A DNA stretch of 63,623 nucleotides, filler included, from Dugesia japonica (lineage: Eukaryota): assembly GCA_001938525.1 (NCBI GenBank). It is 6 parts of 6 records of this genome, joined end to end, with 100 filler letters (N's around TTAATTAATTAA, not from the genome) between each part and the next. Parts side by side here need not be neighbours in the genome. Positions count along the whole stretch, not along the records: positions 13,650 to 27,349 come from MQRL01589065.1; 5 more parts are not named here. The stretch is one strand, 5' to 3'. Below, piece by piece: positions 3,501-62,796 of this stretch. Below the pieces are notes generated by a model. It searched no databases. It was not told the DNA's origin and saw only the letters and a list, made by a program, of their open reading frames with translations. The translations under genes were made by a program, and so were the position numbers. Within the stretch, counting starts at the first letter, position 1. Each line of letters starts with the position of its first letter.

Positions 3501-3726
3501 CCATTCTGACTGACAGAGGTAAAGTGTTTGAAAGTCAAGTGATGGCAAAGAAACTAGGAAAATTTGGAATTGTACAAGAATTTAGTTCCCCTTATCAACA
3601 CCAGCCAAATGGTTTGGTAAAACGGAAGATCCGAATAGTGAGAGGCATGAGTAAGATATCAATAAAAAGGAAATGTGATGAGAAAGATTCGGAGAAATTA
3701 TTACCGAGAGTAGAATTTAGTACTAA
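566..3726 (+). mobile_element. Degenerate Ty3/gypsy gag-pol (gag, protease remnant, RT, RNase H, integrase), truncated inside integrase
   Basis: RT motifs SIDLGQAYYQV, FRFNRMPFRLATAPATFQ, FLGHTVS; RNase H IAYGSR..EKEYCVT..RTDHKAL; integrase H-x3-CH and SSPYQHQPNG; many stops and frameshifts; gag 891-1139 homologous to 28986-29189. Confidence 0.93.
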
Positions 3727-4039: not shown

Positions 4040-4380
4040 TTACTCATCCAGGTTGATGACTTCCTTGACCATTTCCTTTGTAATCTCTTTCTTCGGCTTT
4101 GAAACTTGTGCCAATGTTCTTACGGTGGATATCAACACCCCCTCTCTGTCAGCATAGGCCCTGATGATGTCGGCCATCCCCGACAGTACTGTGATAAGGC
4201 TAGATCTCTTTCTTTCAGCTTGACATTTGTATCCCGTAGCGACGCATTCTTTTGTTGTAGCTCCGCTATTTGGTTCTGTATTTTTTTGTAAAGAAGCCCA
4301 TTTTTCTGAATGCCCACAATTGGTGTGTCGGTCAGCTTCCTTGTATTTGACACTGCAATTATTGAGAAATTAATATTCAT
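4040..4380 (-). pseudogene. Small coiled-coil ORF (module of row 1)
   Basis: caag|ATG at 4380; heptads IQNQIAELQQKNASLRDTNVKL; continues in a shifted frame to ~4040; AATAAA at ~4020. Confidence 0.5.
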
Positions 4381-4615
4381 CTTGTATCTATATTTGTAAT
4401 AATAGTGTAATTCATAATTGAAAGCATGTTATGAAGTTTTTAAACTTAACAATATTCAAATCAACGACAAAATCTGTGTCGCATAACAACCGGGTTTAAT
4501 CGTCATCATAATTTAATTACTTTAATTCCTCGTAAAATTCTATGTTCACATTTTGTTCGACAGTAAGAAAGCAATTAAAAATAAAATATATTATAATGTA
4601 AACAGATAAGTTGGA

Positions 4616-5150
4616 TCACACAAATGTCTCAACAAAAATTTCTTCTTCATACAACGGAATCAATATTTGTTGTAATGTGGTCTCTACTTTAATAAACAAT
4701 CGATCCAACATCTTCGAATATTCTTCCGCCTCGATCTGTGTAGAACGTAACTCCTGTATTAGCTTTTGTTGCTGCTGAGCCAGTTCTGTAGAGCGAACGA
4801 GCAACGCCACTATTTCCTTTTTGCGAGCCTCTTATTCTCCTGCCAATTCTATGATTCGGTTTCGATAGGTTCGTTCCTGGGTATCTACACTTTTTTGTAG
4901 ATAATCAAGCATTGTTAACTTATGCCGAAGAGTCTCTTCCTGTCGTGAAACTTGCTCTTTCAGTTGGGTTATTTGAGCATCTTTCTGCTTGAAGCGATAT
5001 TGCACAATCCACCACGGATCCGCTTCTGTGCCCTTGGATCCAAGAAAAATCCCACAAATTCGACATACTGTTACATGGATTTGCCTGGAAGGAGCATCCT
5101 TCGGCTCCCAACGAATCTCTGGCCGTGGTATTTGTTATGTGTCGAGACAT
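4616..5150 (-). pseudogene. Frameshifted coiled-coil ORF of ~175 codons (module of row 1)
   Basis: ctag|ATG at 5150; after one frameshift reads ..WWIVQYRFKQKDAQITQLKEQVSRQEETLRHKL..*..ELAQQQQKLIQELRSTQIEAEEY, joining track ORF 4616-4810. Confidence 0.55.
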
Positions 5151-9695: not shown

Positions 9696-10057
9696 CTACA
9701 TCAAATCTAGAGCCCCCGGGTCTAACCACTGGGTAGGCTCATCTACCAAATAGTTTAAGGCGGCTTCGTCGTCTTTGTCGTTCCAACGGATACACGCTTC
9801 ATTCCCTAGATGCCTGGATAAATCTGTTATGCAACGATGTAGGAAGTCAATTTTGTGCTGTAATATCTGTTTAGTCTGTTCCGCCAACTCACTCGGCTTT
9901 TTCACTATAAAATCGAGATTCTTAATTAAGCGGTTGCGTTGTGCCAAATGGCGAAATAAAGCTCGTTCTGTTTGTCTTTTAAGGTGACGCTCTACGAGAA
10001 GCTTTTGGATTAGCCGGTGGCATCTACGCAGACTGGTGGGTAATTGTATACGTGGCA
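9696..10057 (-). CDS. Module D: ATG-less basic/helical ORF of ~120 aa after a splice acceptor
   Basis: ttattatctgtttag|TG CCA CGT in frame; stop at 9696; AATAAA at 9680-9685; the track's hydrophobic N-terminus is the polypyrimidine tract. Confidence 0.6.
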
Positions 10058-10264
10058 CTAAACAGATAATAATCATTAAGATAAGAGATAAACTAAGCAT
10101 TTCAAAATTCAAATGAGATCAATAAAGATATCAATCCAGACAAAATAAATTAGTACAAATTCAAGAAGTCTTTTATTTACAAATGAACAGTAATTGCAGA
10201 ATTCAGGGCCGCGATATTTGAGTGCTCTTTTCTATCATAAGCGGCTCAAGCGGCATTCTCTTTC

Positions 10265-10560
10265 TTATTCCAGAATGACATTCAGCAGTTTATTCTCACG
10301 GTCATGGAGGGATCGAAAACTTTTTGCAATGGACTCGATTTGTGACTCCCAGAGCCTTTCTTGGGCATGGGAGGCCTCTGCTTCTTGGCGGAATGCTATG
10401 CATTTCTTTTTGTATCTCTTTACCTCACCTTCTGAAGTGGTCGTGTTGACCTCCCATCGACGTTTTGCAAGGCGATACAAGTACCATGTCATCTCAGTGT
10501 CTTCACTTGATTGACATATTTTTTTAGTGGGTGCCGAGGAGCGGTTTTAAGATAAATGCA
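10265..10560 (-). pseudogene. Module C: coiled-coil ORF of ~98 aa after a splice acceptor, one early in-frame stop
   Basis: ctaat..catcctcatctttgcag|TG CAT TTA TCT TAA AAC.. in frame with track ORF 10265-10492; TGTAAATAAA at 10172-10181. Confidence 0.55.
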
Positions 10561-10720
10561 CTGCAAAGATGAGGATGTCAATTAGTAGTTATAGAAAATT
10601 AAAAAAATCAAACAACAAATTTGATATTTAAAAGATTATTATTCCTTATAATAGCTTATGGAATTCATCAGTAACGTAAAGATACAGTGTGAATACTTTA
10701 GTAATAAAAAAAACAAATAT

Positions 10721-11145
10721 TTATAATGAAGTCTCATTGGCGGGATTCGCGTTCTCGGAATTAATGCTCTCGCCGGAATTACGGATGTTCCACAAATTAT
10801 TCTGAACGAAGGCATTCAGCTCAGAAAAAGGAGGTAAGTGTTCAGTAGACAAACTCACGATGGAAGGGCCTACCTGCTCAATCTGGACGGTTCGTGGTTC
10901 TCCATTAATATCTAACTGAGTTGTGGTAACGGCGTGGTAGACAGCACGTGTGTGATCGGGGTCCGTCCAGTTATAATAGGCCGCACGCTCGTTTGCGTCC
11001 CACTGTCTTTCATCCTCTATTTTATCGGCCGGTAAGTTTGAACGTTCTACGAGAACCCCAGCATCACGGTTATGCGGGTACTTGTAACGTTTAAAAATCG
11101 TACGCGCCGTCCTTCTATCAAGCACGATTTCCCCTTTATATTCCA
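10721..11145 (-). CDS. Module B: ATG-less 141-aa ORF after a splice acceptor, unknown product
   Basis: actaacatattttatag|TG GAA TAT in frame (branch-point-like ACTAAC); open 141 codons, relatively GC-rich. Confidence 0.65.
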
Positions 11146-11286
11146 CTATAAAATATGTTAGTTTTTTTTATCGTGTATAATTAGTGGTAAAATAATAAGA
11201 AAATGTAAGTGTAACTACTTGATTGAAATATTATTTATTTTAGTAAAAACAAAGAAGAAAATTTGTAATGAACGGCAGTCATAGTT

Positions 11287-13549: not shown

Positions 13550-13649
13550 NNNNNNNNNNNNNNNNNNNNNNNNNNNNNNNNNNNNNNNNNNNNTTAATTA
13601 ATTAANNNNNNNNNNNNNNNNNNNNNNNNNNNNNNNNNNNNNNNNNNNN
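13550..13649. other. Artificial scaffold spacer
   Basis: N44-TTAATTAATTAA-N44, exactly 100 nt; identical spacers at 27350-27449, 36190-36289, 45228-45327, 55257-55356. Confidence 0.97.
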
Positions 13650-16600
13650 TTTTAGCGGATGGATGGCAACCAGAAGTGTATGGCAAATTTGAAGTTGAGT
13701 ATCAGGGGAGAACAGTATCGCATGAAATGACAGTATTGAAAATGAGTGAGGATTGCATATTGGAAACGGATCTAATTCTATTATTGATGAAAAATGTAGT
13801 TTTGGATATGACCACATTGAAAATATTGAATTCCAGAGAAAATTTATATATGAAGGATAATGAAGTATATACAAACGAAAAATTGGTGATACCGAGGAGG
13901 AGTCAAGTATTTTGTATTGCGAAAACCCAAGCAAACTGTAAAGAGGATATGAATTTTGAACCACATGAAGGGTTCTCAAAGCGATATAAATTGACCGGCG
14001 AGGGAAATAGTAAAATTGTCTGACGAAGGAAAAGTGCCAGTCAACGTACTGAATATGACAGAAGAAGATATTACGATATATCCAAATTCAAAAATCGNNN
14101 NNNNNNNNNNNNNNNNNNNNNNNNNNNNNNNNNNNNNNNNNNNNNNNNNNNNNNNNNNNNNNNNNNNNNNNNNNNNNNNNNNNNNNNNNNNNNNNNNNNN
14201 NNNNNNNNNNNNNNNNNNNNNNNNNNNNNNNNNNNNNNNNNNNNNNNNNNNNNNNNNNNNNNNNNNNNNNNNNNNNNNNNNNNNNNNNNNNNNNNNNNNN
14301 NNNNNNNNNNNNNNNGCGTGGACAGACAATGAATTAGGTACGTGTGCGGTGACAAAACATTCAATAGTATTAACAGACGAAACACCAATAAAGTTGCGAA
14401 CTTACAAACAAGCCGAAGCAAACCGAAAGATCTGTGAGGATAAAATTGACGAAATGCTAAAGTGTAAAGTAATCGAGTCAAGTTGTTCACTGCGGTAATT
14501 TCCAGTGGTATTGGTGAAAAAGAAAGATGGAACCATGAGATTCTGTATCGATTACAGACAACTAAATGCNNNNNNNNNNNNNNNNNNNNNNNNNNNNCCA
14601 GACATTAACGATATGTTAACGTTATTATATAATGCAAAGATATTAACGACATATGATTTGCAGAGTGGATATTGGCAAATCAAAATAGAGGAAGCAGACA
14701 AAGAGAAAACCACATTTTTAGCAGGCAAAGATTTATATCAATTTGTGCGAATGCCNNNNNNNNNNNNNNNNNNNNNNNNNNNNNNNNNNNNNNNNNNNNN
14801 NNNNNNNNNNNNNNNNNNNNNNNNNNNNNNNNNNNNNNNNNNNNNNNNNNNNNNNNNNNNNNNNNNNNNNNNNNNNNNNNNNNNNNNNNNNNNNNNNNNN
14901 NNNNNNNNNNNNNNNNNNNNNNNNNNNNNNNNNNNNNNNNNNNNNNNNNNNNNNNGACTTATTTGGGGCATCTGATATCAGACAAAGGAAAACAACCGGA
15001 TCCGACGAATATCGAAAAAATCAAGAATTTACCTGTGTCGATAAACGTGAACTACATTCAAGTGTTACTAGGAATGGCGAATTATTATCGAAAATTTATC
15101 AAAAGATTTGCGACAATCGTGAGACCTATTCAATCACTAGTGAAACAAGACGTAAAATTCATTTGGACAGATGAGCATCAAAAAGCATTTGAAACAATTC
15201 TAGAAAAGTTAATGACGGCACTGATATTGGTACAACCAGATTTTAGGAAATCATTTAGACTTGCAACGGATGCAAGCGGTTACGCAATGGGTGCAGTATT
15301 AAGTCAATTAGATGAAGAAGGACGAGAAAGAGTGATCGGATATTTTAGTAAAACATTNNNNNNNNNNNNNNNNNNNNNNNNNNNNNNNNNNNNNNNNNNN
15401 NNNNNNNNNNNNNNNNNNNNNNNNNNNNNNNNNNNNNNNNNNNNNNNNNNNNNNNNNNNNNNNNNNNNNNNNNNNNNNNNNNNNNNNNNNNNNNNNNNNN
15501 NNNNNNNNNNNNNNNNNNNNNNNNNNNNNNNNNNNNNNNNNNNNNNNNNNNNNNNNNNNNNNNNNNNNNNNNNNNNNNNNNNNNNNNNNNNNNNNNNNNN
15601 NNNNNNNNNNNNNATTACAAGCAAATAGAATAGCCAAATGGGCGATGAAGTTACAAGAATATGCACCGCTGGTCAAATACAAAACTGGAAAAGCAAGAGC
15701 AAAATTTACAGACGAACCAGAAGAAGTGTTAGAAAATAAAGCAGCCAGGGGTGAATGGATAGACTTACAGCAATTGATGAATCGAGACATACGATCTTTA
15801 TGTATGATATTGGCAGAGAATAAAGATTTTACCGGATTAAAAAAGGATCAGTACTAGGACGAGGAAGTGAAAATAATACTAGAGTATATATCTCACTTTG
15901 ACTTGAGTAAAGTGGAGTGTAACAAAGCGATTAAAGAACACTTAAAGAAACGAGGTGGTAGATATACCATGGTAAATGAGTGGTTAATGATGAAGAAAGG
16001 TGATCAACTATTATTGGTAATACCAAAATGTAGACGAGTAAAAATACTTGAGCAGTACCAAAATGGAATTCTAGGAGGTCATATGTCAGCAAAGAAAACT
16101 GAATCAAAATTACGAGCTAAATATTATTGGCCTCANNNNNNNNNNNNNNNNNNNNNNNNNNNNNNNNNNNNNNNNNNNNNNNNNNNNNNNNNNNNNNNNN
16201 NNNNNNNNNNNNNNNNNNNNNNNNNNNNNNNNNNNNNNNNNNNNNNNNNNNNNNNNNNNNNNNNNNNNNNNNNNNNNNNNNNNNNNNNNNNNNNNNNNNN
16301 NNNNNNNNNNNNNNNNNNNNNNNNNNNNNNNNNNNNNNNNGGCATTTGCATTAAAGGATCAAAAAGCGTCGACAATCGCCAGAGTATTAGTCGATAAGTT
16401 ATTCAGTCGGTATGGACCACCGAAAACGATATTGACAGATCAAGGAAAGAACTTCATGAGTGAATTAATGAAAGAAATGACTAGTTATTTTAATATTCAT
16501 AAAGTACGGATATTGGTGTATCATCCACAAACGGATGGAATAACGGAGCAATTCAATCAGACATTGACTAGAATGTTATCGAGTTATGCGACGAAATTCC

Positions 16601-17510
16601 AGAGAGATTGGGACAAACATTTGAATTTGTGTTTANNNNNNNNNNNNNNNNNNNNNNNNNNNNNNNNNNNNNNNNNNNNNNNNNNNNNNNATGTACGGTC
16701 GAGAATGTAATATGCCAATAGATTTGGAGCATCAGCCACCGATATCGCAGTACATGGGCGAAGATGATTATGTTACTGGTATGAAAGAGAGAATGCGAGA
16801 AATATAGAAATTGGCAGCGTTAAATGCGAAATTTAATCAAGAAAGTTATAANNNNNNNNNNNNNNNNNNNNNNNNNNNNNNNNNNNNNNNNNNNNNNNNN
16901 NGAGAACATCCCGCAACAAAAGCTTCACCTTTTAAACTTATGTACGGTCGAGAATGTAATATGCCAATAGATTTGGAGCATCAGCCACCGATATCGCAGT
17001 ACATGGGCGAAGATGATTATGTTACTGGTATGAAAGAGAGAATGCGAGAAATATAGAAATTGGCAGCGTTAAATGCGAAATTTAATCAAGAAAGTTATAA
17101 GGAATTGTATGATCGAGAAACAAAGCCCCGTACGTTTAAAAAGGGTGATATGATACTGATTAATACATCAACAATTGAAATTGGAACCACAGATAAATTA
17201 AAACGACCAAACAAAGGACCGTATTTAGTGTTAAAAACAACTGCAAAAAATCTAAAAGTAAAGGAAGTTGGAAAGCCACTCAAGAAGCCAAGTATTGTTC
17301 ATGTATCGAAATGTAAACTAGCAACAACCCAAGACGACAATGATAAAGAAAGCGATGAGGAGACTGTTGAAAGAGTGAGACGAGTCAAGGTCAAGCCAAA
17401 AACGGAGGACAGTGACGAGGAGGTCAAACAAAACTTTAAAAAGACAAAAGGAGTTAGTTTCAAACCGAGATTAATTGATGAGGAGAATCGATACCCAATC
17501 AGGTCCAGAC
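13650..17510 (+). pseudogene. gypsy pol: protease end, RT, RNase H, integrase
   Basis: VLVKKKDGTMRFCIDYRQLN; DLQSGYWQI; YLGHLIS; LATDASGYAMGAVLSQ; GGHMSAKKT..YYWP; TDQGKNF..YHPQTDG; GPY motif; C-terminal RYPIRSR. Confidence 0.95.
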
Positions 17511-20500
17511 AGCAAATAATGATGATAATGGGGAAAACAATCAAAGCGGTAGACGTCAATGTGAGTACATGCAATCAGAGGAATCTAGTCTTGCGATGTA
17601 AAATATGTCACTGTACAAGTTCTATTACAGTGCCATTAAATAAAGTGCTTATGAGCAAAATATGTTTTCACTGTTTACAATCGATTTATGATAACTTAAC
17701 GTTGATGGAGAAAAGTGTCAAACGAGAATCATTACAAGAGGATAGGAAGGAACCCAATCGTTCCACATGTGAATAATGTAATGAAATAGCGTTCAAACAG
17801 AAAGTAGACTCGGACTTATATCAGCAATGGTGTAATAGTTACCTGTGTAAGGCTAAAGGAATTATTGACAATGAATTGGAGGGCTTACATGTACATATGA
17901 GAGGATCAACAGCAGCCAATTCTATTAGACGAGATATAGAATTAACTCATGACGAAATTTTACAAAAATTCAAATTAAATGATCAATTAAAAATTTATGA
18001 AAATAGACGAGATATGCTTAATCAATATTATTCTTCAGTGACGGACGACTGGAAGAAAGGAAATCGAAAATGCGACAATCCAAGATGTGGACGATATAAC
18101 ATGAAAGGACTAATTCCCCAAATTCAGACAACGATAACGGGGGAAATGGTTACGATTCACTAGAGGAAGTGGTAAAAAGCGGGATGATGGACTATTGTGA
18201 ATTAAGCGGACGACCACCGCATGCAGAGTAGGGGGATACACCAAAAATCACTAAATTAAAGGATGCTGTATGGGAGGAGTTTTTGACACAACAAAAGAAG
18301 TATGAAGCAGAGAATAGTCAGAGAGTCAAAGCTGAGGAAGACGATATATTTAACGCAGAGACGATAGCTATGATGAGAGCGTATTTTATAGATAGTGTTG
18401 ATTCCAACAGCCGTACTAGAAAAGATTAAGGCGTGCGGTGAAGGATGTTATCAAAAATGGATCCAGGAACATAAAAAGGAAGGAAAACCGAGATTACCGG
18501 AACATAAAGACAAAAAGACGCCCGGAGAGCGGCCAACGTCAAAAGAGGAGCGAAAAAGAAAGGAAAAAAATAAGGAAATAGAAACTGCAATATTATTAAC
18601 AGTAGAAAGAGTATTGCGTCGTGGAATGGACATACCTAAAGAGAAAAAGTTGGAAATGCAAGCGTATTATCAAAGGAGAAAACGCAAATGGTGTGCAGAA
18701 CGTCCAGGAGAAAAGTTTCCCACGATACGGGATGGGTATAGGATGGAGAGATGGCCGAGAGATCAAGAACTCCAAAAGTATCATGAACGAGAGTATAAGA
18801 GAATGCGGTGTGCTTTACAAAAAGCTAGAGGAATATTTAAAAATTGAGGAATCGTACAACGGAAAATCTCTTATCGAACAAGATTGCGAAGAGCGATTCA
18901 TAAGAAGTGAAGATATGGTAATTGAGTACCAGAGAATAGCAGATGTGTATCCACATCCATTGTTGGTAGAAGAGAGTGAAGCGATGAAAAAATAATACCT
19001 ACAAGCAATGCAGCGTAAAGCAAAACAAGAAAAAGAACAGGATTCGAGCAAGCGCCAAAGTCAAGTGGAGATGTGGAAATAAGAATGGGGCAAACAATTG
19101 CAAAAATGTTATGGAATCACGGAACCAGAAACGAAAACTAAAACGCTAAAGGAAGCAGAAACATTGAACTTTTGAGGGATTATTGAGGACGACACAAAAG
19201 ATAATGACAAAGTTGAGGACGAGATAGTAGTAATTGGAATGATGGACCTTAAGGGCAATGTCCTGTTTGAGATGCCTTTTACACCTGAGTTAATGAAGGA
19301 GATTAGAGCAATTCAAGAAAAACAAGAAGAAAGAAAGGTTGGAACAAGACAATATGAGTGTGGAGTGAAAAAGAATCAAATAATAGAACAAGAAATTAAC
19401 TTAGTGATGGAACAGGCAACGATTAAAGAACCGAGTCGAGGAACTCCGTTACCAGAACCACCACAAATGGAAATGACACGTCAGAAGGAAATTATGTATA
19501 CCCGATGAAGAAATCCGAATCACAGGACCCTGTTTACGAAAATGAGTCAGGAGATCTAAAGGTGGAAACAAAGAGGACATACTTCTTACCTACAATCAGA
19601 ATTCGGGATTATTCGAAGCCAACAGAGAGTGTAGTTTTTACTACTACCACTATATTCATGTGTTCTATTCTACGCGTGACCGGTATGAGCCAGTCTGGCT
19701 CGGATTCAGAGGCAAATGTCAGAAAAAACGGGCGGGGTATATCTCGCAAGTCTGGAGAATCGAACTACGGGGAGTGATGGGAATTCAATGGAACCGGTTC
19801 CCATTAGGTATATGGAGACAGCACGCCACCTTACGAAAAGAAGAGTGGCCTATGATGGATATGAAAATGCGTATAGTAGACAAAGAGATGCAGAAGTTAC
19901 GTTCCAAGGGTCACGTAGAAGAAAATGGTTTTTTCGGATTAAGCAATATCAGTCTTTAACATATTGGATGCAAGACGGGATGTTACAAGAATATAGATGG
20001 GAACGTAACCAAAACGAAATGATAATGAAGCTTAATCAAGAAAATGTGGAGTGGTTAGAATTAGAATATATATTATTAGACGAGATGCCACCGAGCAACA
20101 AGGCAATAACCGTCAAACCGACGACAAAAGGGAGAACAAAAGCGAAAACCTACTTAAAGACGGCAATGGTCAAGTCAACAACAGAGAAGTGGAGGACGAG
20201 GGTGTATTCAAAAATGACAACGACAGCGATAACAACTATCATGAAGAGAGGTACGACAGAAACCAGTGTACAAAGTAAAAGGAGGAACCATATGATGACG
20301 GGGTATGCGAAAACGACAACTGAAAGTGAATCAACGAGGAAGCCATCGAATGTATTAAATAAACANNNNNNNNNNNNNNNNNNNNNNNNNNNNNNNNNNN
20401 NNNNNNNNNNNNNNNNNNNNNNNNNNNNNNNNNNNNNNNNNNNNNNNNNNNNNNNNNNNNNNNNNNNNNNNNNNNNNNNNNNNNNNNNNNNNNNNNNNNN

Positions 20501-20714
20501 NNNNNNNNNNNGTGGTGGAGTAGCGGGCGTCATTACGATTATCATGATGACGATTATAACAATATTAATTTGTAAAGCGAAACGAGGGCAGTATTCGAGA
20601 CTGCGTTTGGAACCGGAATTAAGAGAATTGACAGCAAAATATTTGCATCCGCCAAGAGAGTTGGTGCGATCGGGAGTTCCAGAGGGAGGAACTGGGTTGC
20701 TATGGAGTTATTGA
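17511..20714 (+). pseudogene. Decayed ~1000-codon extension of pol: Cys-rich part, charged helical region, putative ectodomain, Thr-rich stalk, TM helix and short tail
   Basis: In frame with integrase; CxxC pairs (CKIC, CFHC, CE*C); 17060 and 17876 ORFs share a frame across one stop; TM GGVAGVITIIMMTIITILIC followed by KAKR. Confidence 0.6.
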
Positions 20715-20930
20715 GGAGAATAGTGAGAGTGAAGTTGTAAATAAATTTCCTGAAATTTAACAGTAAGGTACACAATTTAGTTTTGAGTAGCTCNAAATGT
20801 AAAGTAGAGCATAGCTGATTAAATTGAAATTAAAATGTGAATTAGTTGAATAAATTTGAATTTTATATGGATCACTATAAAATTTATCGTAGTATTTAGT
20901 TAGTAAAGAATGGAACAGAAACAGATAACA

Positions 20931-21425
20931 ATGAACGGACAACTAGCAGTAAATGTGGATCTAGACGACTTCGACAGAGCAATTACGGAGGAACCATGAC
21001 AAACGTATACCCAGATGCTTAATCAACTTTTAAATCCTTATTTTACAATGGAAATTTTGTGGGACGAACACTGCCGAAGCGTAATGAGAAATTCAGATAT
21101 GTTAAACGAGCAACTTCAACAGACACGACAATTAAACGCAATCCTTGTGGAGAATGTAAATTTTCATGTGTTGCAGATACATCGACTGAATAAAATAGTA
21201 GAGAATCAGAGACGACAGATTACCGAGAATCAGAATTTTTACCTACAAACTTTGAGTGGAACTAACAAAATAGTAGAGGATCTGAGACACCAAGTGGATG
21301 AGTTACAAGCCTATAATGCAGAGCTTATTCTATCCGGAATTAATCGACTACCGAGCGTATCCGCCATCCTGAACACTATCGAGACGAGCGAGAGGATGTG
21401 GTATCGAGAAGAGAGTAATGTATGA
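20931..21425 (+). CDS. Accessory coiled-coil ORF (one internal stop upstream of 21015)
   Basis: ATG at 20931 in frame with track ORF 21015-21425; heptads IVEDLRHQVDELQAYNAEL; AATAAA at 21518. Confidence 0.6.
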
Positions 21426-21588
21426 TAAAAGGTGCTAAAACGTAGAGTATTGTAAAGTATGTGTGTTAAATAGTAACTGTATTACTATTCAAAAAAAATC
21501 AAAAACAGTAAAAGTATAATAAAAGTAGAGTGGCAATTATATTTATTTAATCAGTGCGTAATCAGAATAATTCCAATTTGTATATAGA

Positions 21589-21809
21589 ATGTCTGAAGAT
21601 TTTCAAAGGCTGTGGAGTTGTGGGGTGGAGACGATCACGATAGAGAAGTCAAGTTTGGAACAGAAATCAATCGCAGAATTACAATTTCGGTATTAAATTT
21701 ACCTTGTGAGCATGTAGCAGTTTGTCAAAAATGTCACCAGAGAAACGAGTTTAAGCGATGTGAAGTGTGTAAATGTCCAATAGAGGAGTGGCATGTGGTG
21801 TATTTATGA
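21589..21809 (+). pseudogene. IAP/MDM2-type C-terminal RING finger (C3HC4_3-like), first CxxC missing
   Basis: LPCEHVAVCQKC..RCEVCKCPIEEWHVVYL*; tatag|aATG upstream but out of frame; TGTAAATAAA at 21828-21837. Confidence 0.75.
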
Positions 21810-21996
21810 GTGGAATACCCGGTAAATTGTAAATAAAAATAAAATCAGGAAACAGTACAGTAAAAGTAACAAAGGAAGCAATATTAAAACAATTGGTACA
21901 TATCAGTCTCAATTAAAAGTTGAATTATCAGTAACTCCCAATATCTTAATATGTAGATATTCCATATTATGATTTACGTATATTTCAATTAAGAGA

Positions 21997-22984
21997 ATGG
22001 CATCCAGATATCAGAAAAGTATGAGTCGACAACGAGTGCGATCAAAAGATATTTTGAGAAAAGTAATTCCATCAACAATGACAACTCCCGTCTATATTAC
22101 TAACCGAGAACACAGGAAAATAAAGCGAGTGAACAGCTACGCGGTGGCGAGTCGCCGAAATTACAGTCAAATATACTTGAAATAGAGGATCAGGTTGATT
22201 CATGTTGCAGATCAAGTTGAATCAATCCAAATCCAATCCCCAAGGTCACGATGAACCATTTGATGAAATAGAACAATCCCGAGCTCAGTGGAAACAGGCA
22301 TGTTTAGCCAAAGAAGAGAAAATACATCAACTACAACTGGAATTGTCATCCATGCAAAAAAGACATCTAGATCAGGTCAAAGAATTAGAAACGGAGATCA
22401 AGTGGCAGAGCAAGAAAATAAAAATGCTCGAGAAAACCATGGAAAATAATAACGAAATCAGAATTGTGAATCAACGAACTCCCCAAGTGAAGACGAATAA
22501 ATTGCAAGAAGAAATCGATCAATTAATAAAAGAAAGTCGAAACCAACAATCGCAAAGAGAACAAGATATGATCGAAATTCAAAACCTAGAAAATGCCGTA
22601 AAGCATCTGCGCGATGAGAATGTTCTCTTAAAGGAAACTCCTATTCGAGTAGTAATCCCTCCACGTCAAATTAAAACTACAAAGCGAGAACAGACCTTTT
22701 ATACCTATAAAATCAATGGGCGATCAGTAGCCCCACAAATCAGCTTATTAGACCAAAGAGCGAATCATAAAAGAAAAGATCAAGTGTCTCAATTTTCCCG
22801 TCAATTTCCCAATTCTCAGTCCAGTCAATCCAGCCCATCCTATCCTACGACTTGGACAAATGAACAATCGCAATGGCCATATTCAGCGTCCGAAGAGGAT
22901 CTGTTCAAAAGGTTAAAAATCTGGTTAAAAGGGAATAACTGGACTCAGAGAACTCGGAAAAAGTTCGGAAAAGAAAATTCATAA
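21997..22984 (+). pseudogene. Accessory long coiled-coil ORF with basic N-terminus and S/Q/P-rich tail (frameshift near 22185)
   Basis: aagag|aATG at 21997; heptads EEKIHQLQLELSSMQKRH..LQEEIDQLIKE..IQNLENAVKHLRDENVLL; AATAAA at 23058. Confidence 0.6.
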
Positions 22985-23196
22985 GCAGAACTAGGTCATA
23001 AATAATGACGGAGATTACATTATTGATTAACTTATTATGGTAAAAAGAAATGTTCTCAATAAAGGTTTTAAATTATTAAAAAATCGCCGAAAATTATGTT
23101 ACAACTTAATTACAAATAATTATAATCTGACTTTTTTCTTGTTAAAATGAATCAAAAATCTACATTATTTTTCGTTTTCATAATAATAATTAGTAA

Positions 23197-23620
23197 AAGA
23201 TTGGAAAGTGGTATATTGAAAAGTTAAGACGCAATTGTATTCGTCGTTCCAGATTCAATGAAGGCGTTCAACCATTAACTACGTTCAAGATCTCAATACC
23301 CACAGAAGTGAAATTTAATTCTTATGTCACTGCGGATAACAATCTCCTAGTTGCAGATATTCCATCTACTCATGACATTCTAAATCAACTACTAGCACCA
23401 AATTTAAACGATGTAAATGTTGATGATGACAACTTTATTGATGTTCTACTCGATCTGACTATTCACGACCGCATGTGAATGGTGGGCGAATCTACGACGT
23501 CTTTTGGAAACATTGAATGAAGTCCTCACAATTACCACGAAATCTAGAACTACGGAGATCACAGAGTCTGATTGCGATGAAGCCAAGGACAATGAGTCTG
23601 AGATGGAAGATCTAAATTAG
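23197..23620 (+). pseudogene. Fourth accessory ORF, acidic, decayed (absent from ORF track)
   Basis: Stop-free frame KIGKWYIEKLRRNCIRRSRFNEGVQP..DVNVDDDNFIDVLLDL to 23478; acidic tail in a shifted frame ends TAG at 23620. Confidence 0.45.
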
Positions 23621-24969
23621 TGATCCAAAGTTTACTGGTCATCTCTCTGCGTTCTCTTCTTTTTCTTCCGTAGTCGTTATGATCCACAGCTTTTAGCTGA
23701 CTAAAACAAGACAGGTTTAAACTTGGGGAGAATTTTCTAGCATGAAAGATGACTCCGTTTATCTCGGAGTATGCTTTTTATTCGATGGCCAAAGAATTCT
23801 CACTTAATAATGTTAAATAAACGAAAATCAAGAAAATTTATTTAAGTCTCAAATGTTTTGACATTTAAATTTGACAAAAATTCCAAATCGAGTTATTCGA
23901 TATTTGGCGTGTGAATGGTTCATTTCTTGGAGTGATTAATTATGATAATAAGACTATTGTAAAAAGATAGAAAATCTTAACTAGAAAGAAAAAAGACAGA
24001 AATCTACTGAGATGTATTTCGATATTTCTTTATTCCACAATAGAAGTTAATAGAATATTTTGAAATGAAAAACAAAAAGAAATATTGTTATGAAAATTAA
24101 AAAATAATTAATTAAATACATAATTGTGACACACAATATAGAAACTAAGCTAGATAATATTCATTATTCCATCGAAAACCTGTGGATTCATCAAATCTAA
24201 TATACAATCAACTATTCGTAATTCCAAACCGCGGCTTTCCGAGACATTACTATTCGATTTCAAATCTACAAACATTGTATAAATAGATCAACAACTACAA
24301 AACTACATTGAAAATTATCGACTGTCCTTTGTAACACGATTTGCATTGATCCGATCACTTTAGAACATACAGCCTGTAGAAGAATATATACAGAACTATT
24401 AATTATCAATAAAAGAACTTTCTCTTTGATTTAAATCAATAAATACAAAACATTCTAATTTTTGAAGATGAATTATAGTTAGAAATTTATGTTACAAATC
24501 AATCAAGCATATCATTCAATTAAATCTGAAGAAATAACTTTACTTTCACATAAAAATAATAGTTCTAAAAGAAATTTACTGTAAATTCAACAGAAAAGTA
24601 TTTAATTTTTGTTTTTACCGAATTTTCGACAATAGCTTTCACTATACAATAAGTTTTGAGAGATGCAGAATTGATTTCAACAAAGGAGCGATTGTGTTGA
24701 TAATCAATAAGCTTGTCAAACACGCATGGTATTAAGTTAATTCTATTAAAATGAATATTTTTATTCATCAATTCAATTATTAGATATTTTGCAAAAGCGT
24801 TTCATTTTCTCTTGGAAAAATTGAACAGATGTTGCTTATTGATTACACAAAAACTTCTTCAAAAAAGATAGTTATATATCATTCAAAAAATGTACATAAT
24901 TTTAAAAATATTGCTCACTAGGATTTTAAATTTTTTTTAATTAAATCTTTATAAATCTATACGATAAAT

Positions 24970-25248
24970 CAGTGGTTCTTAACCTTTTTAGTGGTCAGCA
25001 CCCCCTTGAATATGAAAATAAGCTCTCGCAACCCCTAAAAATGTGTTTATATATTTTATTTAAGAAGCATTTATTGCATAAGAAAATGAATACATTTACA
25101 ATATAAATTAATATATAACTGATGACAAGCGCGATGTGCTGAGAGACGCTAGACAGTGTACAAGTAGGGCTGTCACGTTGATGGGTATCAAGGTTCGTTT
25201 TCTTTTAATTTTTGAAATTTTTCTCGCACCCCAGATAAAGAACCACTG
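24970..25248. mobile_element. hAT MITE
   Basis: TIRs CAGTGGTTCTT / AAGAACCACTG; TSD CGATAAAT / CGATAGAT. Confidence 0.85.
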
Positions 25249-25334
25249 CGATAGATAAAAAGATTTTTTAAGAAAAATTGCAAATGTACACCACAGAGTA
25301 AGACAAATATAAACACAGAATGTATACCATATAT

Positions 25335-25570
25335 CAGTGCCCCGCAATCGGTGTGCCGTGAGACAATTGTATTACTGACACAGCAAAACTTCTAATTTCA
25401 GTAATATTAATGTTGTAATCCTTTAATTATATGTGAAGTATTTAAATAAATGTGATTTCTGTTTAATAATATTAAAATGTTTTATTCTTTGTATATTTGA
25501 TTTTGCTGTGCCATATGACTCTGGAAACAGCTTTAGTGTGCCATGAATGAGAAAAACTTGCGAAGCACTG
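25335..25570. mobile_element. hAT MITE
   Basis: TIRs CAGTGCCCGCAA / TTGCGAAGCACTG; TSD CCATATAT / CTATATAT; GTGTGCC subterminal motifs. Confidence 0.8.
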
Positions 25571-26019
25571 CTATATATTAAAAAAACCGGAGTAAAATTT
25601 AGAGTAGCGTATTTTCGAATTGATAACACGCGGATTATCTACATAAAAGAAAAATAAAGAGTCCTTGAAAACATTTATCTATTATAAAAAAGTGCAAGAT
25701 CTGAGAATTTTAAATCCTTTCAATTTGTTCANNNNNNNNNNNNNNNNNNNNNNNNNNNNNNNNNNNNNNNNNNNNNNNNNNNNNNNNNNNNNNNNNNNNN
25801 NNNNNNNNNNNNNNNNNNNNNNNNNNNNNNNNNNNNNNNNNNNNNNNNNNNNNNNNNNNNNNNNNNNNNNNNNNNNNNNNNNNNNNNNNNNNNNNNNNNN
25901 NNNNNNNNNNNNNNNNNNNNNNNNNNNNNNNNNNNNNNNNNNNNNNNNNNNNNNNNNNNNNNNNNNNNNNNNNNNNNNNNNNNNNNNNNNNNNNNNNTAA
26001 ATTTAATTTATATGCTTAA

Positions 26020-26651
26020 GATTTTCCAGTAATTTTAGCATTCTCTATGACTATTAATAAGACCCAAGACCAATTATTTGATATAGTTGGCGTGTATTTG
26101 CTTGAATCAGTTTTCGCTTATGACCAAGTCCACGTTGCACTTACTCGGTGTAGAAATCATGAAAATCGTAGAATGTTTATCAACGAACCACTTAATCAAG
26201 TAAAAATTCTTAATGATCATCGCACTTTCACAAAAAACCTTTATAATATAAACATCCAATTCGCTCACTGACTCACTCTGGAACGCTCGCACACAGGTAA
26301 AAAAATCAATGATAATTTATATAAGTGCGTTGGAATTAGCAAACTAATATACCATAACGGTTAACGGATATTTGAATTAGTTTGGGTGAAAAAGCAGACC
26401 TGATTAACCGTCAACTTTTGTATGAATTACAAGGACCGTTATTAAAAAATGCAAGACAATTTACTTGCAATGTTGTGTATGCCGAAATAATTCAGCAAAT
26501 AAATACTAACGCTTCATTGTATGAACAATAAATTTTACTGCTCTTTTTTTAATTCAAACCAAAAATATTTGCAAAATATTCTCATTTTCAGATTGAAAAT
26601 TAAAAATAAATTCAAAAATTACGAGCGCACAGGCGCCTTAGAGTAAACTAG
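26020..26651 (+). mobile_element. Helitron 3' end (PIF1 helicase C-terminus, hairpin, CTAG)
   Basis: FPVILAFSMTINKTQDQ..VGVYL..VFAYDQVHVALTR; hairpin GCGCacagGCGC then CTAG|T at 26648-26652. Confidence 0.85.
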
Positions 26652-27926
26652 TAAATAATTTCTTCACCAAAATGAAATTCATCAAATTCTGGACATAAAC
26701 AAGGCTACATTCTAAAGGAAATCATTTTACATTAACTATAAAAAAGGTTATTTGAAAAATTAATTATTATGCCTATTTTATAAATTATGATCAATGGAGT
26801 TACATATTAAAATTCTGATTTTGTAATCAATTATGTAGTTACCTTATTAAAAACTGAAAGTGATTATAAATATCCAATGAAGATTTACGAAGACCAACGT
26901 GAATGTGAATTTCTATAATCCCTAAAATTTCAGCGGAAAAACTTTAATTTACAAGTAACATTATGATCAGAAATATTACTTGCAAAGATGACAAGAAGTC
27001 TCTTCAAAATACGTGACATTTCAAAAATTACAATAAAATTTATAAATAAAAGCGGATACAATTTATGTTAACATTTTGAAAAATGTCGACATAATTTTAA
27101 AGTTTGGAAAATAAACTCAATAATTACAGATTTGACACAAGCTAAATGTAAATATTAGCAGAAAGTAGAAAATGAACAGAATTCATCTGGTACTTCATGA
27201 TTTCAATGAATTTCAATATCGGTACTTATGAACGCATCGTAGTTCACATTGATGATTATAACATTCGGTTAGATAAGAATCTTCAAATAATTTTATGCTT
27301 GTTTGTTTTTATGGATCCTACTTATCGGTTACAGACGATTTTTTTTTAANNNNNNNNNNNNNNNNNNNNNNNNNNNNNNNNNNNNNNNNNNNNTTAATTA
27401 ATTAANNNNNNNNNNNNNNNNNNNNNNNNNNNNNNNNNNNNNNNNNNNNTAATAACAGATAATTATTTTCTTTAAATTTTCGAATTATTTAAAATAAAGA
27501 TTTAATCTAAAATATTAAATTTACTAGAAAATAATTTCCAATGGAAGCATGGGTTTTAATTTGTTTGAATTAAAAAAAGGATTGTTTGTGAATAAATTTT
27601 GCTATGGAATCGAGTTTTGATATTAATGATCAGATGAGTTCTCTAAACTCATCTAACAGTAATTATATTTCGTTGGAATAATAACTAAAAATTTATTATT
27701 GAACTCCTGAAATTCTAGATTTTTAATCATCCCATGATTGTATAATAAATTATCATGATAGAAAAAAATTGCTTTTTAAAAGAAAATCAGTACATACTAG
27801 TACATCCGTGGAATGGGAGAAAAAAAATAGTATTTTAATCTCAATATAATCAGGTTGTATTAATAATGCTAGTAGAAATTCAAATATTTAGTTAAAAGTA
27901 TCAGTTACAATATCCCTGTCCTCTTT

Positions 27927-29631
27927 CATATTTGAAGAACAACTAAGTGATTAGAATATAAGTGATTAAAAATAAATATAACGTTAATTCGTATTATTAA
28001 AACAACAATATTTCGAATTTCCAAAACTCTCCCCTCCTTTAAAACGTTTTTCATCTTTTTAACCATTCTTTTCTTCTGGTTTTCAAACCATTTGGAAACT
28101 TGATTTCTACTTGATGTGCTGATACAAACCTCACTATTTGGTATTACTTCATATAGCAAACCGTTTTTCTTTTGTTTGTGTGGTTCTACTCGGACTAATA
28201 CCCACTTTTCAATTTTCTAGGCATTCTTCTCCAAATTCTGTCGCACTATCTCTTTTCTGCCTGTTCTTCTGTTTAAGAGCGTTTCCTCTTAGGTATGCAG
28301 ATTTATCTTTCTATCAAATACGATTTTGAAAGGAGAGAATTTTGCTGACTCTTGTATTGTAGCATTAATACTAAATACTACTCTCAGTAAAGTGTCTCCC
28401 AATCTTTTTCATTACATTTCCTTTTTATTCATATCTTAATCATGTCCCTTCACTGTTCGGATCGTTTCTTCTTTTTTTCTGTCTGAGCCGGTTGAATCAT
28501 TGTAATTATATCGGTTGAATTCCATTGATACGTTTTACTCTGACTTTTTCTCATTTTGAGTCTATGTGTTTCATGCTATATTGTGAACATAAACTCTCCT
28601 TTAAAAAGATCTAAAATTATGGCCAGACTTGCCATAAATTAAAAATCTGTCTTCTAATGAGCATTGATTTTGTTTATACCCACATTCTCAACAGCAGTAA
28701 CATTTACCCACTTGGAGTTTATCTTCACGAGATTCTAGAAATTCACTATGTCTGTTAAATAACATCTTGCAAAATATTTCATCAATACTGCCGGTTTTGG
28801 CCTCATCACCTGAGTTTTATCTTCCATCATCACTGGTTGGGTGCTCCTCTCATATACTCTTTTTAATGGCAAAACATTAACACGTATTTTATGTTTATCC
28901 TCTTCAACTCTATTTATGTATAGTTTCACTACATTTGTATAACTCATCTTTTTTGTATCATACAGATATCTTTAATTTCAGTGATTCATTGATAATTTCC
29001 TTGTTCTCGTGTTGTCAATGTTTCTTTCAACTTTGTATTTTTCACCTTCTTAGAGAGTACGTCATTAATTATTTCATCTTTACTTAGTTCTGAATTCATG
29101 ATATCATCTAACCGATTTCTTACTCTGATTTTGAATGTTGCGAATCTTCCTTCATTCTCATGTTTTGCCGTTGCTAATTCTAAAATCATATCTGAAAACG
29201 ATTTTATTTATCATATATGTGACTGTGAATCGTCTTTTGGCTTCCTCTGTTATGATATCAATTTTTTAAAAATCTTTTAAAAAAATTCCTGCTTTGTCTA
29301 ACAATAGCAAATCAAAGATATCCAAAAAATTAAAATCGTTAACGATAGTCCCACCTACGTTGAAGCTTCTTCTGCAGCTTTTTCATCATATTTTCTGACG
29401 TTAAAATTTTTTAATTCTTGCGTTTTTTTATAAAGCATCTAAAAACAAATTTCCGTTGATGCTGTTATTTTGTCAGCGCATTCACAGTTCTGGTGTGGTT
29501 GCCATTTACAATATTCTTGTCATCATATTTGATCATATTTGAAGAACAACTAAGTGATTAGAAAATTTATTAAAAATAATTTATAACGTTAATTCGTATT
29601 ATTCAAACAACATTATTTCGAATTCCCATAC
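27927..29631 (-). mobile_element. Internally deleted gypsy element with ~100-bp LTR-like direct repeats (same family as 566-3726)
   Basis: Direct repeats 27927-28026 and 29533-29631; PPT AAAGGAGGGGAGAG at 28040-28027; gag from ATG ~29514 with decayed zinc knuckles ~28620-28710; RNaseH-IN linker and IN end; RT deleted. Confidence 0.88.
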
Positions 29632-31139: not shown

Positions 31140-34100
31140 AGATGTCAAGGAATTATGGCAAGAAACGAAAACAAACGAGGATTTCAATTCAAATGAAAAG
31201 TGCGAAAGTTGGTTTCGATCAACATTTATTAAAGATAAATCGCTGGTTGAAAAATTACAAATCTATCATCAGTTAAACAAAAGGTTGTTGAAAAATATCG
31301 AAATTTCAAGATAAGAGTAAAAAACTTGTCCACGATATATTTGAAAGCAAAAGATCACAAGAGGAAATATGAAAAGTTTTATTCCGAATGGATTAAGAAG
31401 TGAAAAATTAAAAGAATNNNNNNNNNNNNNNNNNNNNNNNAATGATGAAAATGTCGAGAATTGGCTGCAAACCTTGATAAATTTTTAGCAAAAAGTAATG
31501 TTGTCAACGAAAGCTATGTAAGTGCAGTTAAGAAATCAGCTTTTAAACTAAAATATAATAAATTGAGAAGAGATTGAGAAGAAAACCAACAAACTATTCA
31601 AGAATTGGTAATAATATGCTACAATTAAGAGATTTAAATAAAGACCAAGNAAGAGAATTTCAAAGTATTCTCTGAAATATGTAGCAACAAAAATTTATAA
31701 TAGATATCATGGTAAAGCTCCCCCAAAAGTAGAATTCCTACAGCATGGTGCTTGATTTTGCTGTGGAAAAACAAACCATAGAAGAAGAAGTATTTAATAT
31801 GAATTTAATATGAAGGCCACGCTTTCAGAAATTGTGCAGGCACAATAAAGAGGACACAATAATCGAATAATATTATTAATAACAGTAAAATAGAGGGAAG
31901 AATCTATAAATGAATGTGAATCATAAATTGATTTTTAACATGATGCAATAAAAACTTTAAAATATAATGAAAAAATGCCCAACAACCCGTTGTATTTATT
32001 TCGTCAGTGAGGATGCATTTAAGAGTTTTAAAGAGAAAAATCGAGATATTGAAAGAAAACCTGATGTTAAACTGATGTATCAAAAACTTGATGGTAGAAA
32101 TTGGAGCAGTGTAAATTGTAATGGAATCAGTGTAGAGATTTTATGGGATTTATGAGCGTCTGTCTCAGTGATGAGTGAAGAAATATGGAAGAAGATTGGT
32201 TCACCAAAAATTCAATTTTCAAATGTAATGCTAGCTGAAGTATTTTCTGAGAAAAGTGAAAAATGCATAGGAAAAGCCATAATTAAATTATTTTAGAATA
32301 AAAAAGCATATATAGAGAGAAATAATTATTGTTAAAAACATTTATCCAAATTTTATTGGTGGTATCGATTAGAAGCGTTCGATTTCATAGATTAAAAAGA
32401 TGTTATATGCAAAGATAATAAACATTGTGATAAAAAATTGAATATACTCAAGTTAAATGCCAGCAATAGAATAATTGAATTAGTTGATAAATATGACCAC
32501 ACATTTATGAATTCCAAATTTGATGTAGATTTAACAAATATGACAATGTATAACATAAAAACTAAAGGAGAACCCGTATTGATAAATCCAAGAAGAAAAC
32601 ATATGTATTTAGAAGGCAAGATATACAAATTAATACAAAATCTATTATCAGAAAATATTATAAACCTTGTCGAAATCCATGGAATTCTCCATTAGTGATT
32701 GCTCCAAAAAAGATGGTTCTCTCAGAATGTGCCTTGAGTTTAAGAAATTGAATTCGGTAACTGAAAAATATTTATTTCCTGTTCCAGATATAAATATGCT
32801 ATTGGATACACTAAGTTTTTCACATCAATCGATCTAGGACAGGCGTATTGCCAAATTGAACTAACTGAGAAGTCAAAATTAAAAACAGCTTTCACCACAA
32901 AAATGGGGAAATTTGTTTCAATCGCATACCATTCGGATTATGCACCGCTCCTGCAACGTTTCAAGAATTAATGCATAAAATTTTCAACAAGATCTTATTT
33001 ACTACAGTGTTAGTTTATCTTGATGAAATTTTAATTTTGGGTCAGACACAAGACATTCATGATAAATTTTTTACAAAATGTGTTGAAACTAATTGAGCAA
33101 TCTGGTCTAAAAATTAATCCTGAAAAATTTATATTTAGTTTATCAAAACTCAAATTTCTTTGTCATACAATCAGTTCTAAAGGTGTTGAAACAAATGATG
33201 ACATTATTAATAAAGTAAAATAAGCTGTTATTCCAAAATGAGCAACCCAAATGTGAACCTTCTTAGAATTGACAAATTACTACCGTAGGTTTATTTAAGA
33301 TTACGCAAAATAGCCTGTCCATTAATACAACACTACATCGATCACAAAAAGTTGAATAGTGGACTGAAGAATGTGACAGCAGCTTTAAACTACTGAAAGA
33401 AAAATTATGTTATTCTACAATGTTGGCATTTCCAAATCCTCAANGCAAAATGATAAGCAAAAGCTTCTATGCAATTGTTGCTGTTTTGAGTCAATTATCA
33501 AGAGATGGCCTGGAAACTGTTACTGCTTATGCATCTCGTAATTTGAATGACCATGAAAAGAGTTTTTGTGTAACCAGAAAAGAACTATTGGAATTCCACG
33601 AAATTATGATTCATTTCATTATTTTTACAGAAAAAAGTTCACAGCAAAAAAAGCATTAGTGTTTATGAAGAAAACAAATAAACCAATTCCAGACGTGGAT
33701 TGCAAATCTAGCAGAATTGGATTTTGCTTTTCAATTTCGTAAAAGCATTGACCATGGGAATGCTGAATGGATTATCAAGAATATGATAAAGTTTATGCGC
33801 CCAATGTTTAACGACTCATCACAATGGAAAAGGTGAAAAATCTAGAATTAGAAGAATAAATATCGTAGAAAGCTCAAATTATAATTAAAAAAGTATCATA
33901 AAAATTCAAAATAATGATCAAATTACCAGATATAATTGAATATATTACAGATAAACGTTTCCAAGTTAATAAAAATTTAAATAATTGTATACACTTCAGA
34001 GATATTGATAAATTCGCCATGGAAGAAGATTTATTGATGTTTGTTGATTAAAATACGAAGAGGATTATTTTAGCAGGTAAATCAGTGGTTGGTTTAATAA

Positions 34101-36024: not shown

Positions 36025-36289
36025 CTAATAAATGAAAGAAAAATAAATGTATTTAAAAAATAAATTTAATTAGCAAATATAAAGAAACAAGTTTATTTTG
36101 AGGCGCCCGTAATTTTTTAATTTTCCATCTGAAAATGAGAATAATTAGAGTAAAAAGAAGAGTAAAATTTAATGTTCATACAATGAAGCNNNNNNNNNNN
36201 NNNNNNNNNNNNNNNNNNNNNNNNNNNNNNNNNTTAATTAATTAANNNNNNNNNNNNNNNNNNNNNNNNNNNNNNNNNNNNNNNNNNNN

Positions 36290-39369: not shown

Positions 39370-39859
39370 TATAAGTATAATATACACATAAATTTTAACA
39401 CAAAAGATAATCCAGTTGCACAGAAGTCTAGACGATTATTTGGAGAAAGTTTTGATGTAATACAAAGGGAATTCGATCGTCTTCTGAAAGTTGGAATAAT
39501 TGTCTCTAGAAACCACAAGTGGGCATCGCCATTGGTTGTCGTTAAAAAACAAGATGGGTCGTGGATGCCTTGTTGGGATTACAGACAAATTAAATGAACA
39601 AACCATACCAAACAAACAGCCTTTAACTAGAATCCAAGATCTATTGGATAATATTAGGGGCTCACCATTTTCAGCAAAGTAGACCTTCAAAAAGCATTTC
39701 ACCAGATACCGATAGCAAAAAAGGACATTCATAAAACTGTGGTTATTACTCTATTGGGTTTATATGAATACTGCAAAATGCTATTTGGATTGAAGAGCTG
39801 CTCAGCTATTTTTGAAAGATTTATGGATATAATTCTGAGAGAATATGATAACTTTGAGA
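39370..39859 (+). mobile_element. Decayed gypsy RT fragment (different family)
   Basis: WASPLVVVKKQDGSW, DYRQ, SKVDLQKAFHQIPI, GLYEYCKMLFGLK. Confidence 0.88.
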
Positions 39860-45227: not shown

Positions 45228-45677
45228 NNNNNNNNNNNNNNNNNNNNNNNNNNNNNNNNNNNNNNNNNNNNTTAATTAATTAANNNNNNNNNNNNNNNNN
45301 NNNNNNNNNNNNNNNNNNNNNNNNNNNTTCCGTTGAAGTTAAACTCAGCTTTATAGTTGTAGATATCGTTCCTGAAATATGCGTTCAGATTTAGTTAAGA
45401 ACAGGATTGCAGACAGCTCAAAACAGACACATATCGTATCGAATGCTAAATGTATCAAATGCAAAAGCACTGGTGGTTGAGGATACACTTCAGACACCAC
45501 TGGGAGAGTTTACGACGCTCCCGGTGCATACCAGCTAATCATGATGGTGCCGAGGGAGCCTCGTTTGTCTCCGTCCCAACAATTTAAAACTTTGCTTCCC
45601 CCTAAAATTAATTCTGCGGTCGCCCATAGCTTTGTACGAATAATTTTAAATTGAAAAATTAATTATGTAAAATATAC

Positions 45678-62765: not shown

Positions 62766-62796
62766 GAGAGTGAATTGGCTATAGTGAATTAAACAT

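Follow-up and report, generated by a model that had tools for sequence, protein, structure and literature searches.

What follows the pol gene of a gypsy element in the planarian Dugesia japonica, and does it amount to a virus-like gene set? The question is raised by contig MQRL01589065.1, which occupies positions 13650-27349 of a 63,623-nucleotide (nt) stretch of DNA (hereafter, the window). The window is made of six unrelated contigs with artificial N-linker joints, so that adjacency across joints carries no meaning. We consider it probable that this contig holds a high-copy Ty3/gypsy element in decay, of which the 3' two-thirds are present and which is likely of the Burro-like GAG-ENV-POL kind. 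In this reading, its pol likely continued without a change of frame into a second membrane protein, one on a stalk, behind which come two core accessory genes and others that vary. The gene order is present, the segment from pol to a RING open reading frame (ORF) is linked across the family, and relatives have the same plan. The copy is dead, with pol interrupted by stops, frame changes, and N gaps and every downstream part broken too; being also half-assembled, it is a poor specimen in itself. The first letter of the contig falls inside the retropepsin, directly behind an artificial N-linker, and the 5' half of the element (gag, any env, and the 5' long terminal repeat (LTR)) lies outside the contig.

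The segment at 13652-17335 has the Ty3/gypsy domain order of protease C-terminal half, reverse transcriptase (RT), RNase H, and integrase, with Pfam matches to RVT_1, RT_RNaseH_2, Integrase_H2C2, and rve; these parts and all those downstream of them lie on the plus strand. The retropepsin half and an insert of about 85 amino acids (aa) before RT, which is common to relatives, occupy 13652-14096 with one frame change (E 1e-10 with a profile of the relatives, and alignment). The likeness of this insert to dUTPase is weak (E 0.053, in one of six rows), and it has no match in the PDB. RT, connection, and RNase H follow at 14316-15355 with N gaps and one stop (RVT_1 E 8e-4, RT_RNaseH_2 E 6e-21; 45-51% identity to the relatives P0004-P0009), then the RNase H end, the integrase zinc-binding domain, and the integrase core at 15615-16635, again with N gaps (Integrase_H2C2 E 1e-7, rve E 3e-6), and finally the integrase C-terminal part at 16904-17335 (best matches 42-52% identity; MLVIN_C E 0.045). 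By domain order and RT/RNase H similarity, this pol is assigned to Ty3/gypsy (Metaviridae). A retroviral origin is rejected, as the RT/RNase H is nearer to Ty3-type enzymes (E 8e-19 and 1.5e-17) than to those of murine leukemia virus (3e-11) or foamy virus (1e-7); a Penelope or DNA-transposon origin is rejected on domain order.

A preliminary description of the locus had counted more than 6 kb of co-oriented coding DNA after integrase. The region is indeed co-oriented and its plus-strand coding content exceeds chance by far, but of the 6285 nt between the integrase end and the end of the last ORF (17336-23620) about 5467 nt are coding. Stop-free frames of at least 100 aa cover 86% of 17340-20365 on the plus strand and 0% on the reverse strand, compared with a mean of 2% and a maximum of 14% in 300 shuffles of the same segment. 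They cover 42% of 20715-23620 (shuffles, maximum 27%) and 0% of the flank at 23900-25700. The long pol extension, membrane-anchored domain, and four small ORFs that had been described are present in that order, but all are broken in this copy; between 17057 and 20714 alone, the frame changes three times or more and is interrupted by several stops.

The pol extension (17336-19634) remains in the integrase frame to 18160, that is, for 275 codons past the integrase domain with a single stop, and is broken thereafter. It contains Cys-rich and charged stretches and no known domain; an RYPIRS motif at 17489-17506 resembles the RYPLR motif found after integrase in relatives. A hydrophobic, signal-like segment at 19635-19676 shares its frame with the membrane protein, although stops separate the two; the role of the segment as a signal is suggested by relatives that have a signal-like segment here. 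The putative type I membrane protein itself (19689-20714) comprises an ectodomain, a stalk rich in Thr (22% of the final 100 residues that can be read), an N gap, a transmembrane (TM) helix at 20517-20573 downstream of the stalk (hydropathy 2.57 over 19 aa), and a cytoplasmic tail with a YSRL motif, a YxxL motif that we take to be sorting-like. More than 270 residues precede the TM helix. A length-limited homologue search with the membrane protein found nothing at E 0.001, the ESM Atlas gave no usable match for the ectodomain, Pfam and PHROGs detected no fusion-protein signature, and PHROGs and Rfam searches otherwise returned nothing useful.

Four small ORFs follow the membrane protein, with spacers of 160-270 nt. 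The first (20910-21425) is Gln/Asn-rich and helical with one stop, and the second (21589-21809), split by a frame change, encodes a C3HC4-type RING; in both, AG adjoins the ATG. The third (21997-22984) is coiled-coil-like and broken near its start, while the fourth (23197-23620) is acidic, is in two pieces, has no in-frame ATG, and is near-private to this copy at 80% identity, its family membership being unproven. Of the labels given in the preliminary description (coiled coil, RING, coiled coil, acidic), the RING holds, with a match to zf-C3HC4_3 (E 4.8e-6, 26.7 bits) slightly below the 27-bit cut-off and without the first Cys pair in its matching frame. The coiled-coil calls are weak, however: on a simple heptad score, 33 of 200 shuffles did as well as the first such ORF and 8 of 200 as well as the second, and the Pfam coiled-coil families for these ORFs were all sub-threshold. 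A PDB search with the RING gave nothing useful, a length-limited search with the third ORF found no homologue at E 0.001, and, apart from the RING, none of the small ORFs had a homologue in Pfam, PHROGs, or direct searches of the membrane protein and second coiled coil. In the spacer after the second coiled-coil ORF, RNA reads match 22993-23080 while the upstream part of the reads differs, which hints at a conserved cis-element behind exchangeable ORFs; the same spacer contains a purine run and then TG at 23042. Within the visible part, candidates for the polypurine tract are purine runs only, and the primer-binding-site side is off the contig together with gag and the 5' LTR. No LTR was found on the element's contig, and after 23300 nothing is high-copy or repeated within the window. 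With no LTR and a contig start inside the protease, the giant size given in the preliminary description is not visible here; Burro elements are longer than 30 kb.

Does this 3' region belong to the pol that precedes it? The whole of it could stem from another repeat that had inserted itself behind an ordinary gypsy pol or was placed there by a chimeric assembly. The contig gives some grounds for suspicion, since its N gaps are numerous and one artefact is proven: 16691-16851 (plus strand, between two N gaps) is an exact 161-nt duplicate of 16940-17100, and because 16635 and 16902 are separated by 16 letters in contigs of all four DNA runs, we attribute this repeat to the assembly. However, 16902-20365, which contains the integrase end plus the extension, is free of gaps, and the integrase frame itself crosses into the extension. 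Contigs of the four DNA runs, which come from three studies and carry two organism labels, were mapped to 13650-25700 at 80% identity. Over pol, their summed depth, which is not a copy count, is about 200-1000 times that of the flank in all four runs, and the family is high-copy. Relative to pol, the median summed depth is 0.49-0.75 over the extension and membrane protein and 0.61-0.79 over 20886-21689 (the first two accessory bins), then falls to 0.06-0.09 over 21690-23297 and to 0.001-0.005 over 23298-24905 (the acidic ORF with its flank), where a single contig of 649 nt matches exactly, at the depth of one copy. The parts are tied together by joints left by deletions in other copies: 16508 to 18018 (three of the four runs) and 16596 to 17708 (one run) tie integrase to the extension, and 20275 to 21681 (one run) ties the stalk to the RING.

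Based on these depth tiers and deletion joints, the element has a core from pol to RING, a minority module (the second coiled coil), and a near-private end (the acidic ORF). The 3' region therefore accompanies this pol in other copies as far as the RING ORF, and a wholesale chimera is rejected on the pol-like depth and the joints. The tenfold drop near 21700 and the second drop near 23300 mean that the distal ORFs could be foreign; linkage is weak for the second coiled-coil ORF and is not seen for the acidic ORF, for which alone an insertion may be the explanation. As an account of the 3' region as a whole, which relatives share in plan, we regard it as very improbable. The four ORFs that had been presented as one gene set thus do not form a unit, as two are family-level, one is a minority module, and one is near-private.

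The integrase end and extension were searched against 1.84 billion representatives; 2552 matches were found, and in the best 150, which were examined, the best stretches lie in the integrase part and none extends past residue 212 of the 419-residue query. The element falls, on a long branch, within a 13-row clade of an 86-row integrase tree (Shimodaira-Hasegawa-like approximate likelihood-ratio support 96). Seven of the 12 other clade members (P0004-P0009 and the metagenome locus L013) have an in-frame tail of 329-1148 aa that includes a signal-like segment and, at its C-terminal side, a hydrophobic helix (less pronounced in P0009), compared with 2 of 73 rows outside the clade. P0004-P0009 and their kin are metagenome proteins; one is labelled bacterial and is probably a contaminant. 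Among 80 metagenome loci only L013 is a close relative; viral contigs gave distant gypsy elements only (12 loci, 26-38% identity) and genome contigs none, with ORFs read in 6 of these 92 loci. In L013, integrase, signal, ectodomain, and TM helix are followed on the same strand by a 445-aa RING ORF and a 717-aa ORF; the RING types of this locus and of our element differ. The 717-aa ORF (L013:3723-5873) has no known family. The ectodomains of the relatives have a common Cys-bearing repeat that scores weakly between pairs (E 1e-9 at best among eight), presumably FN3-like by its motif, which Pfam did not confirm. The P0005 tail contains ankyrin repeats as well as a further, protease-like domain, the second in this protein. 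Additional aspartic-protease domains behind integrase were noted in P0003, P0005, and P0010 (Pfam) and, by eye, in P0009, and P0104 has a pol-fused tail that by eye resembles an F-type env.

Two of the six long relatives, P0008 and P0009, encode a gB-type fusion domain ahead of the protease (Monjiviricetes_fusion, E 3e-95 and 2e-84); the other four start in or just before the protease. By eye, the P0009 domain aligns lengthwise with the Smed_errantivirus_1 Env (PMC13524379, supplement 3). This position before the protease is also the one given for Burro and for flatworm errantiviruses in the accessible text of PMC6431247 and PMC13524379, respectively. It is possible that the family to which our element belongs lost or never had such a protein, in which case the post-integrase membrane protein would be its only surface protein and would drive cell-to-cell spread, as proposed for FAST-like sORF2 proteins. 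No env is present within the window, in keeping with this, but the contig starts inside the protease; the element's long branch and an ectodomain unlike those of its relatives point the same way, and small TM proteins after pol are reported for Lepidoptera (bioRxiv 10.1101/2025.03.14.642691) and rotifers (PMC5408684) in the accessible parts of these papers. However, both relatives that reach far upstream carry the gB-type domain, and the FAST-like proteins, as far as described there, are 63-107 aa in total with an ectodomain of about 30 aa, whereas here the TM helix is preceded by far more residues, a long stalk among them. We reject a FAST-like sORF2 identity of the membrane protein on this size difference, and consider a sole surface protein unlikely.

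The preliminary description had also proposed a modular expression layout. AATAAA occurs in all five spacers, which is chance level (a probability of 27-70% for each), and the 415 RNA reads that fall on the element in four runs (35, 281, 39, and 60) include no joint inside it, so these data do not show such a layout; low RNA cover in four runs is not evidence of silence in all tissues. AG directly precedes the ATG in three of the four accessory starts, as compared with 34 of 225 ATGs of the element (p about 0.01, calculated by hand for a window chosen after looking), and in one of the two L013 ORFs. A looser rule, AG 0-10 nt before the ATG, is satisfied by 146 of 233 ATGs and is therefore without power here. 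Processed accessory RNAs are likely, as a prediction from these start sites. RNA reads of all four runs also match 24137-24374, on one strand only in X11; because they share a 45-nt joint and a common loose end, these reads come from a related transcribed locus elsewhere.

The near silence at the RNA level, together with the lack of sequence conservation of the extension, ectodomain, and accessory ORFs across the clade and the differing RING types, would fit extras that originate from fragments of captured host genes and are neutral cargo, without a role in the life cycle of the element. Neutral cargo would not, however, be expected to show a signal-ectodomain-TM layout in frame in seven divergent relatives, a core cassette at family-level depth under two organism labels, or short spacers ending in AG-ATG, and we consider this explanation quite unlikely.

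Our favored reading, in which pol continued into a stalked membrane protein that accompanied an upstream fusion protein, has several points against it. From integrase to the TM helix, this copy has no unbroken reading frame, other copies yield no single contig that reaches from pol to RING, and low summed depth may reflect divergence past 80% identity instead of absence, summed contig depth being no copy number. Five of the 12 other clade members lack a TM tail, some maybe cut by contig ends. In the RT/RNase H tree (50 rows) the element, with P0151, stands beside P0004-P0009 at a support of 82 only, and this tree and the integrase tree are both quick searches. The gB-type protein is off the contig here and would be encoded before the protease by analogy with two relatives. 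A profile of the relatives' ectodomain repeats has no match in the element, and on this basis the head domain is taken to be different from theirs or too diverged. The structure model of the membrane protein is unusable (predicted local distance difference test score of 37), and a fold search with it has no meaning; another prediction scored 38. The missing joints among the RNA reads also belong here.

If the favored reading is correct, a single gag-env-pol-tail polyprotein would thread the membrane twice, and cuts by the element protease and signal peptidase would yield two proteins, first a fusion protein of gB type and second one of type I. The stalk would lift the head domain off the membrane, and the tail would carry the sorting-like motif. 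We tentatively suggest that the second protein serves as an attachment or membrane-sorting partner while the gB-type protein fuses. The small ORFs would be expressed from separately processed RNAs, via acceptors at their start codons, and could tune host pathways, the RING by serving as a ubiquitin-ligase module; those farthest downstream may be swapped between sub-families. More speculatively, this invertebrate Ty3/gypsy clade might consist of two-glycoprotein enveloped retroelements, with a gB-type fusion protein before the protease, an exchangeable attachment protein behind integrase, and a spliced, swappable host-modulating cassette. The attachment part could then be formed by repeat domains in most relatives and by a mucin-like stalk with an unrelated head here. 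Env-bearing gypsy elements have been described with one surface protein. A clade in which the fusion protein is accompanied by another, exchangeable membrane protein and by a cassette that varies would be a testable case of retrotransposons gaining virus-like complexity, and of their passage from cell to cell in animals that keep stem cells as adults. It would combine a herpes- or paramyxovirus-like division of entry labor with a complex-virus gene layout, arisen independently within the Metaviridae.

The remainder of the window contains further mobile-element remnants. Its contigs are separated by identical joints at 13550-13649, 27350-27449, 36190-36289, 45228-45327, and 55257-55356; the first, an unstranded artificial linker of N44, a 12-nt stop linker, and N44, is the one that borders the element. 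Four more decayed gypsy pol fragments, at 1584-3721 (+), 32447-33773 (+), 36291-37559 (-), and 39400-39852 (+), are assigned to other families because they are 25-54% identical per segment to the clade proteins. A 342-nt repeat, 86% alike between its copies on two contigs (731-1072 and 29008-29349), overlaps a frame of 88 aa that lies shortly before the first gypsy fragment and may be gag. At 58262-59398, RT fragments on opposite strands face each other, with a minus-strand match to RVT_1 at E 1e-5; we take them to be Penelope-like by their motifs. A host-like exon at 45662-46129 (-) contains DUF4062 (E 3e-10), as in NACHT/WD-repeat proteins, and a mariner helix-turn-helix fragment (Pfam HTH_48) lies at 62544-62789 (+). 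By motif alone, and with no Pfam match, we assume that 61165-61395 (-) is hAT-like and that 26020-26268 (+) is helitron-helicase-like. Two GC-richer segments, 9699-11167 (-) and 4043-5134 (-), contain several co-oriented frames of 90-150 aa with no Pfam family and could be accessory modules of other elements.

Among known systems, the closest are the Burro/GYPSM1 elements of planarians. According to the accessible text of PMC6431247, these occur in thousands of copies and have an env-like domain between gag and protease that matches mononegaviral fusion proteins, a dUTPase-like insert, RING, BIR, MATH, and ankyrin cargo, and accessory ORFs, while a third planarian contains decaying fragments of such elements. 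As far as this description goes, our element shares the gypsy pol, the protease-RT insert, the very high copy number, a RING among the extras, and accessory ORFs; its relatives add the fusion domain before the protease (P0008 and P0009) and ankyrin repeats (the P0005 tail). It differs in that the 3' pieces show a RING but no Pfam match to BIR, MATH, BCL2, or ankyrin, in the visible part only, as others may lie in the missing 5' half. Moreover, the one accessory ORF located in the accessible text of PMC6431247 is upstream, and neither there nor in that of PMC13524379 is a membrane protein named after integrase, although Grohme 2018 or the Repbase entries may show one. Membership in Burro is likely, by an indirect link that runs through P0008 and P0009; the integrase and RT/RNase H trees contain no Burro sequences.

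The flatworm GAG-ENV-POL errantiviruses of the HSV (herpes simplex virus)/gB type have been catalogued by Chary and Hayashi, and their six entries for Schmidtea measure about 14.5-18 kb between the start of gag and the end of pol (PMC13524379, in its accessible part); there is therefore room in them for a long pol tail. They share with our relatives P0008 and P0009 the ORF order and a gB-type Env, but the text available makes no mention of RING, accessory ORFs, or splicing. The accessible portions of the Troyka paper, PMC8532177, PMC11410931, and PMC13238120 added no structural detail.

Extra ORFs behind a Ty3/gypsy pol, some of them TM-bearing, are known elsewhere. In rotifer LTR elements, a captured ORF3 lies downstream of pol and in some cases has TM domains (PMC5408684, accessible text), and FAST-like sORF2 is N-terminally myristoylated (bioRxiv 10.1101/2025.03.14.642691, accessible text). 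As described in those excerpts, each of these is one short, separate ORF, whereas here a long pol tail, a stalked membrane protein, and up to four further ORFs are found.

The complex retroviruses (lenti-, delta-, and foamy viruses) encode several small co-oriented genes in their 3' part. Our element resembles them in having several such genes there, likely expressed from processed RNAs, so that the layout noticed in the preliminary description stands. The likeness goes no further, as the pol is of Ty3/gypsy type, no surface/transmembrane env follows it, the post-integrase membrane protein has no fusion signature, the accessory genes are without homology, and the fusion protein of the relatives precedes the protease. 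The plan shared with the relatives is that of Burro and the GAG-ENV-POL elements and not that of a retrovirus. Elements of this general kind are already known; what is new is the stalked ectodomain, unmatched by the repeat of the relatives, and the core-plus-variable cassette behind it.

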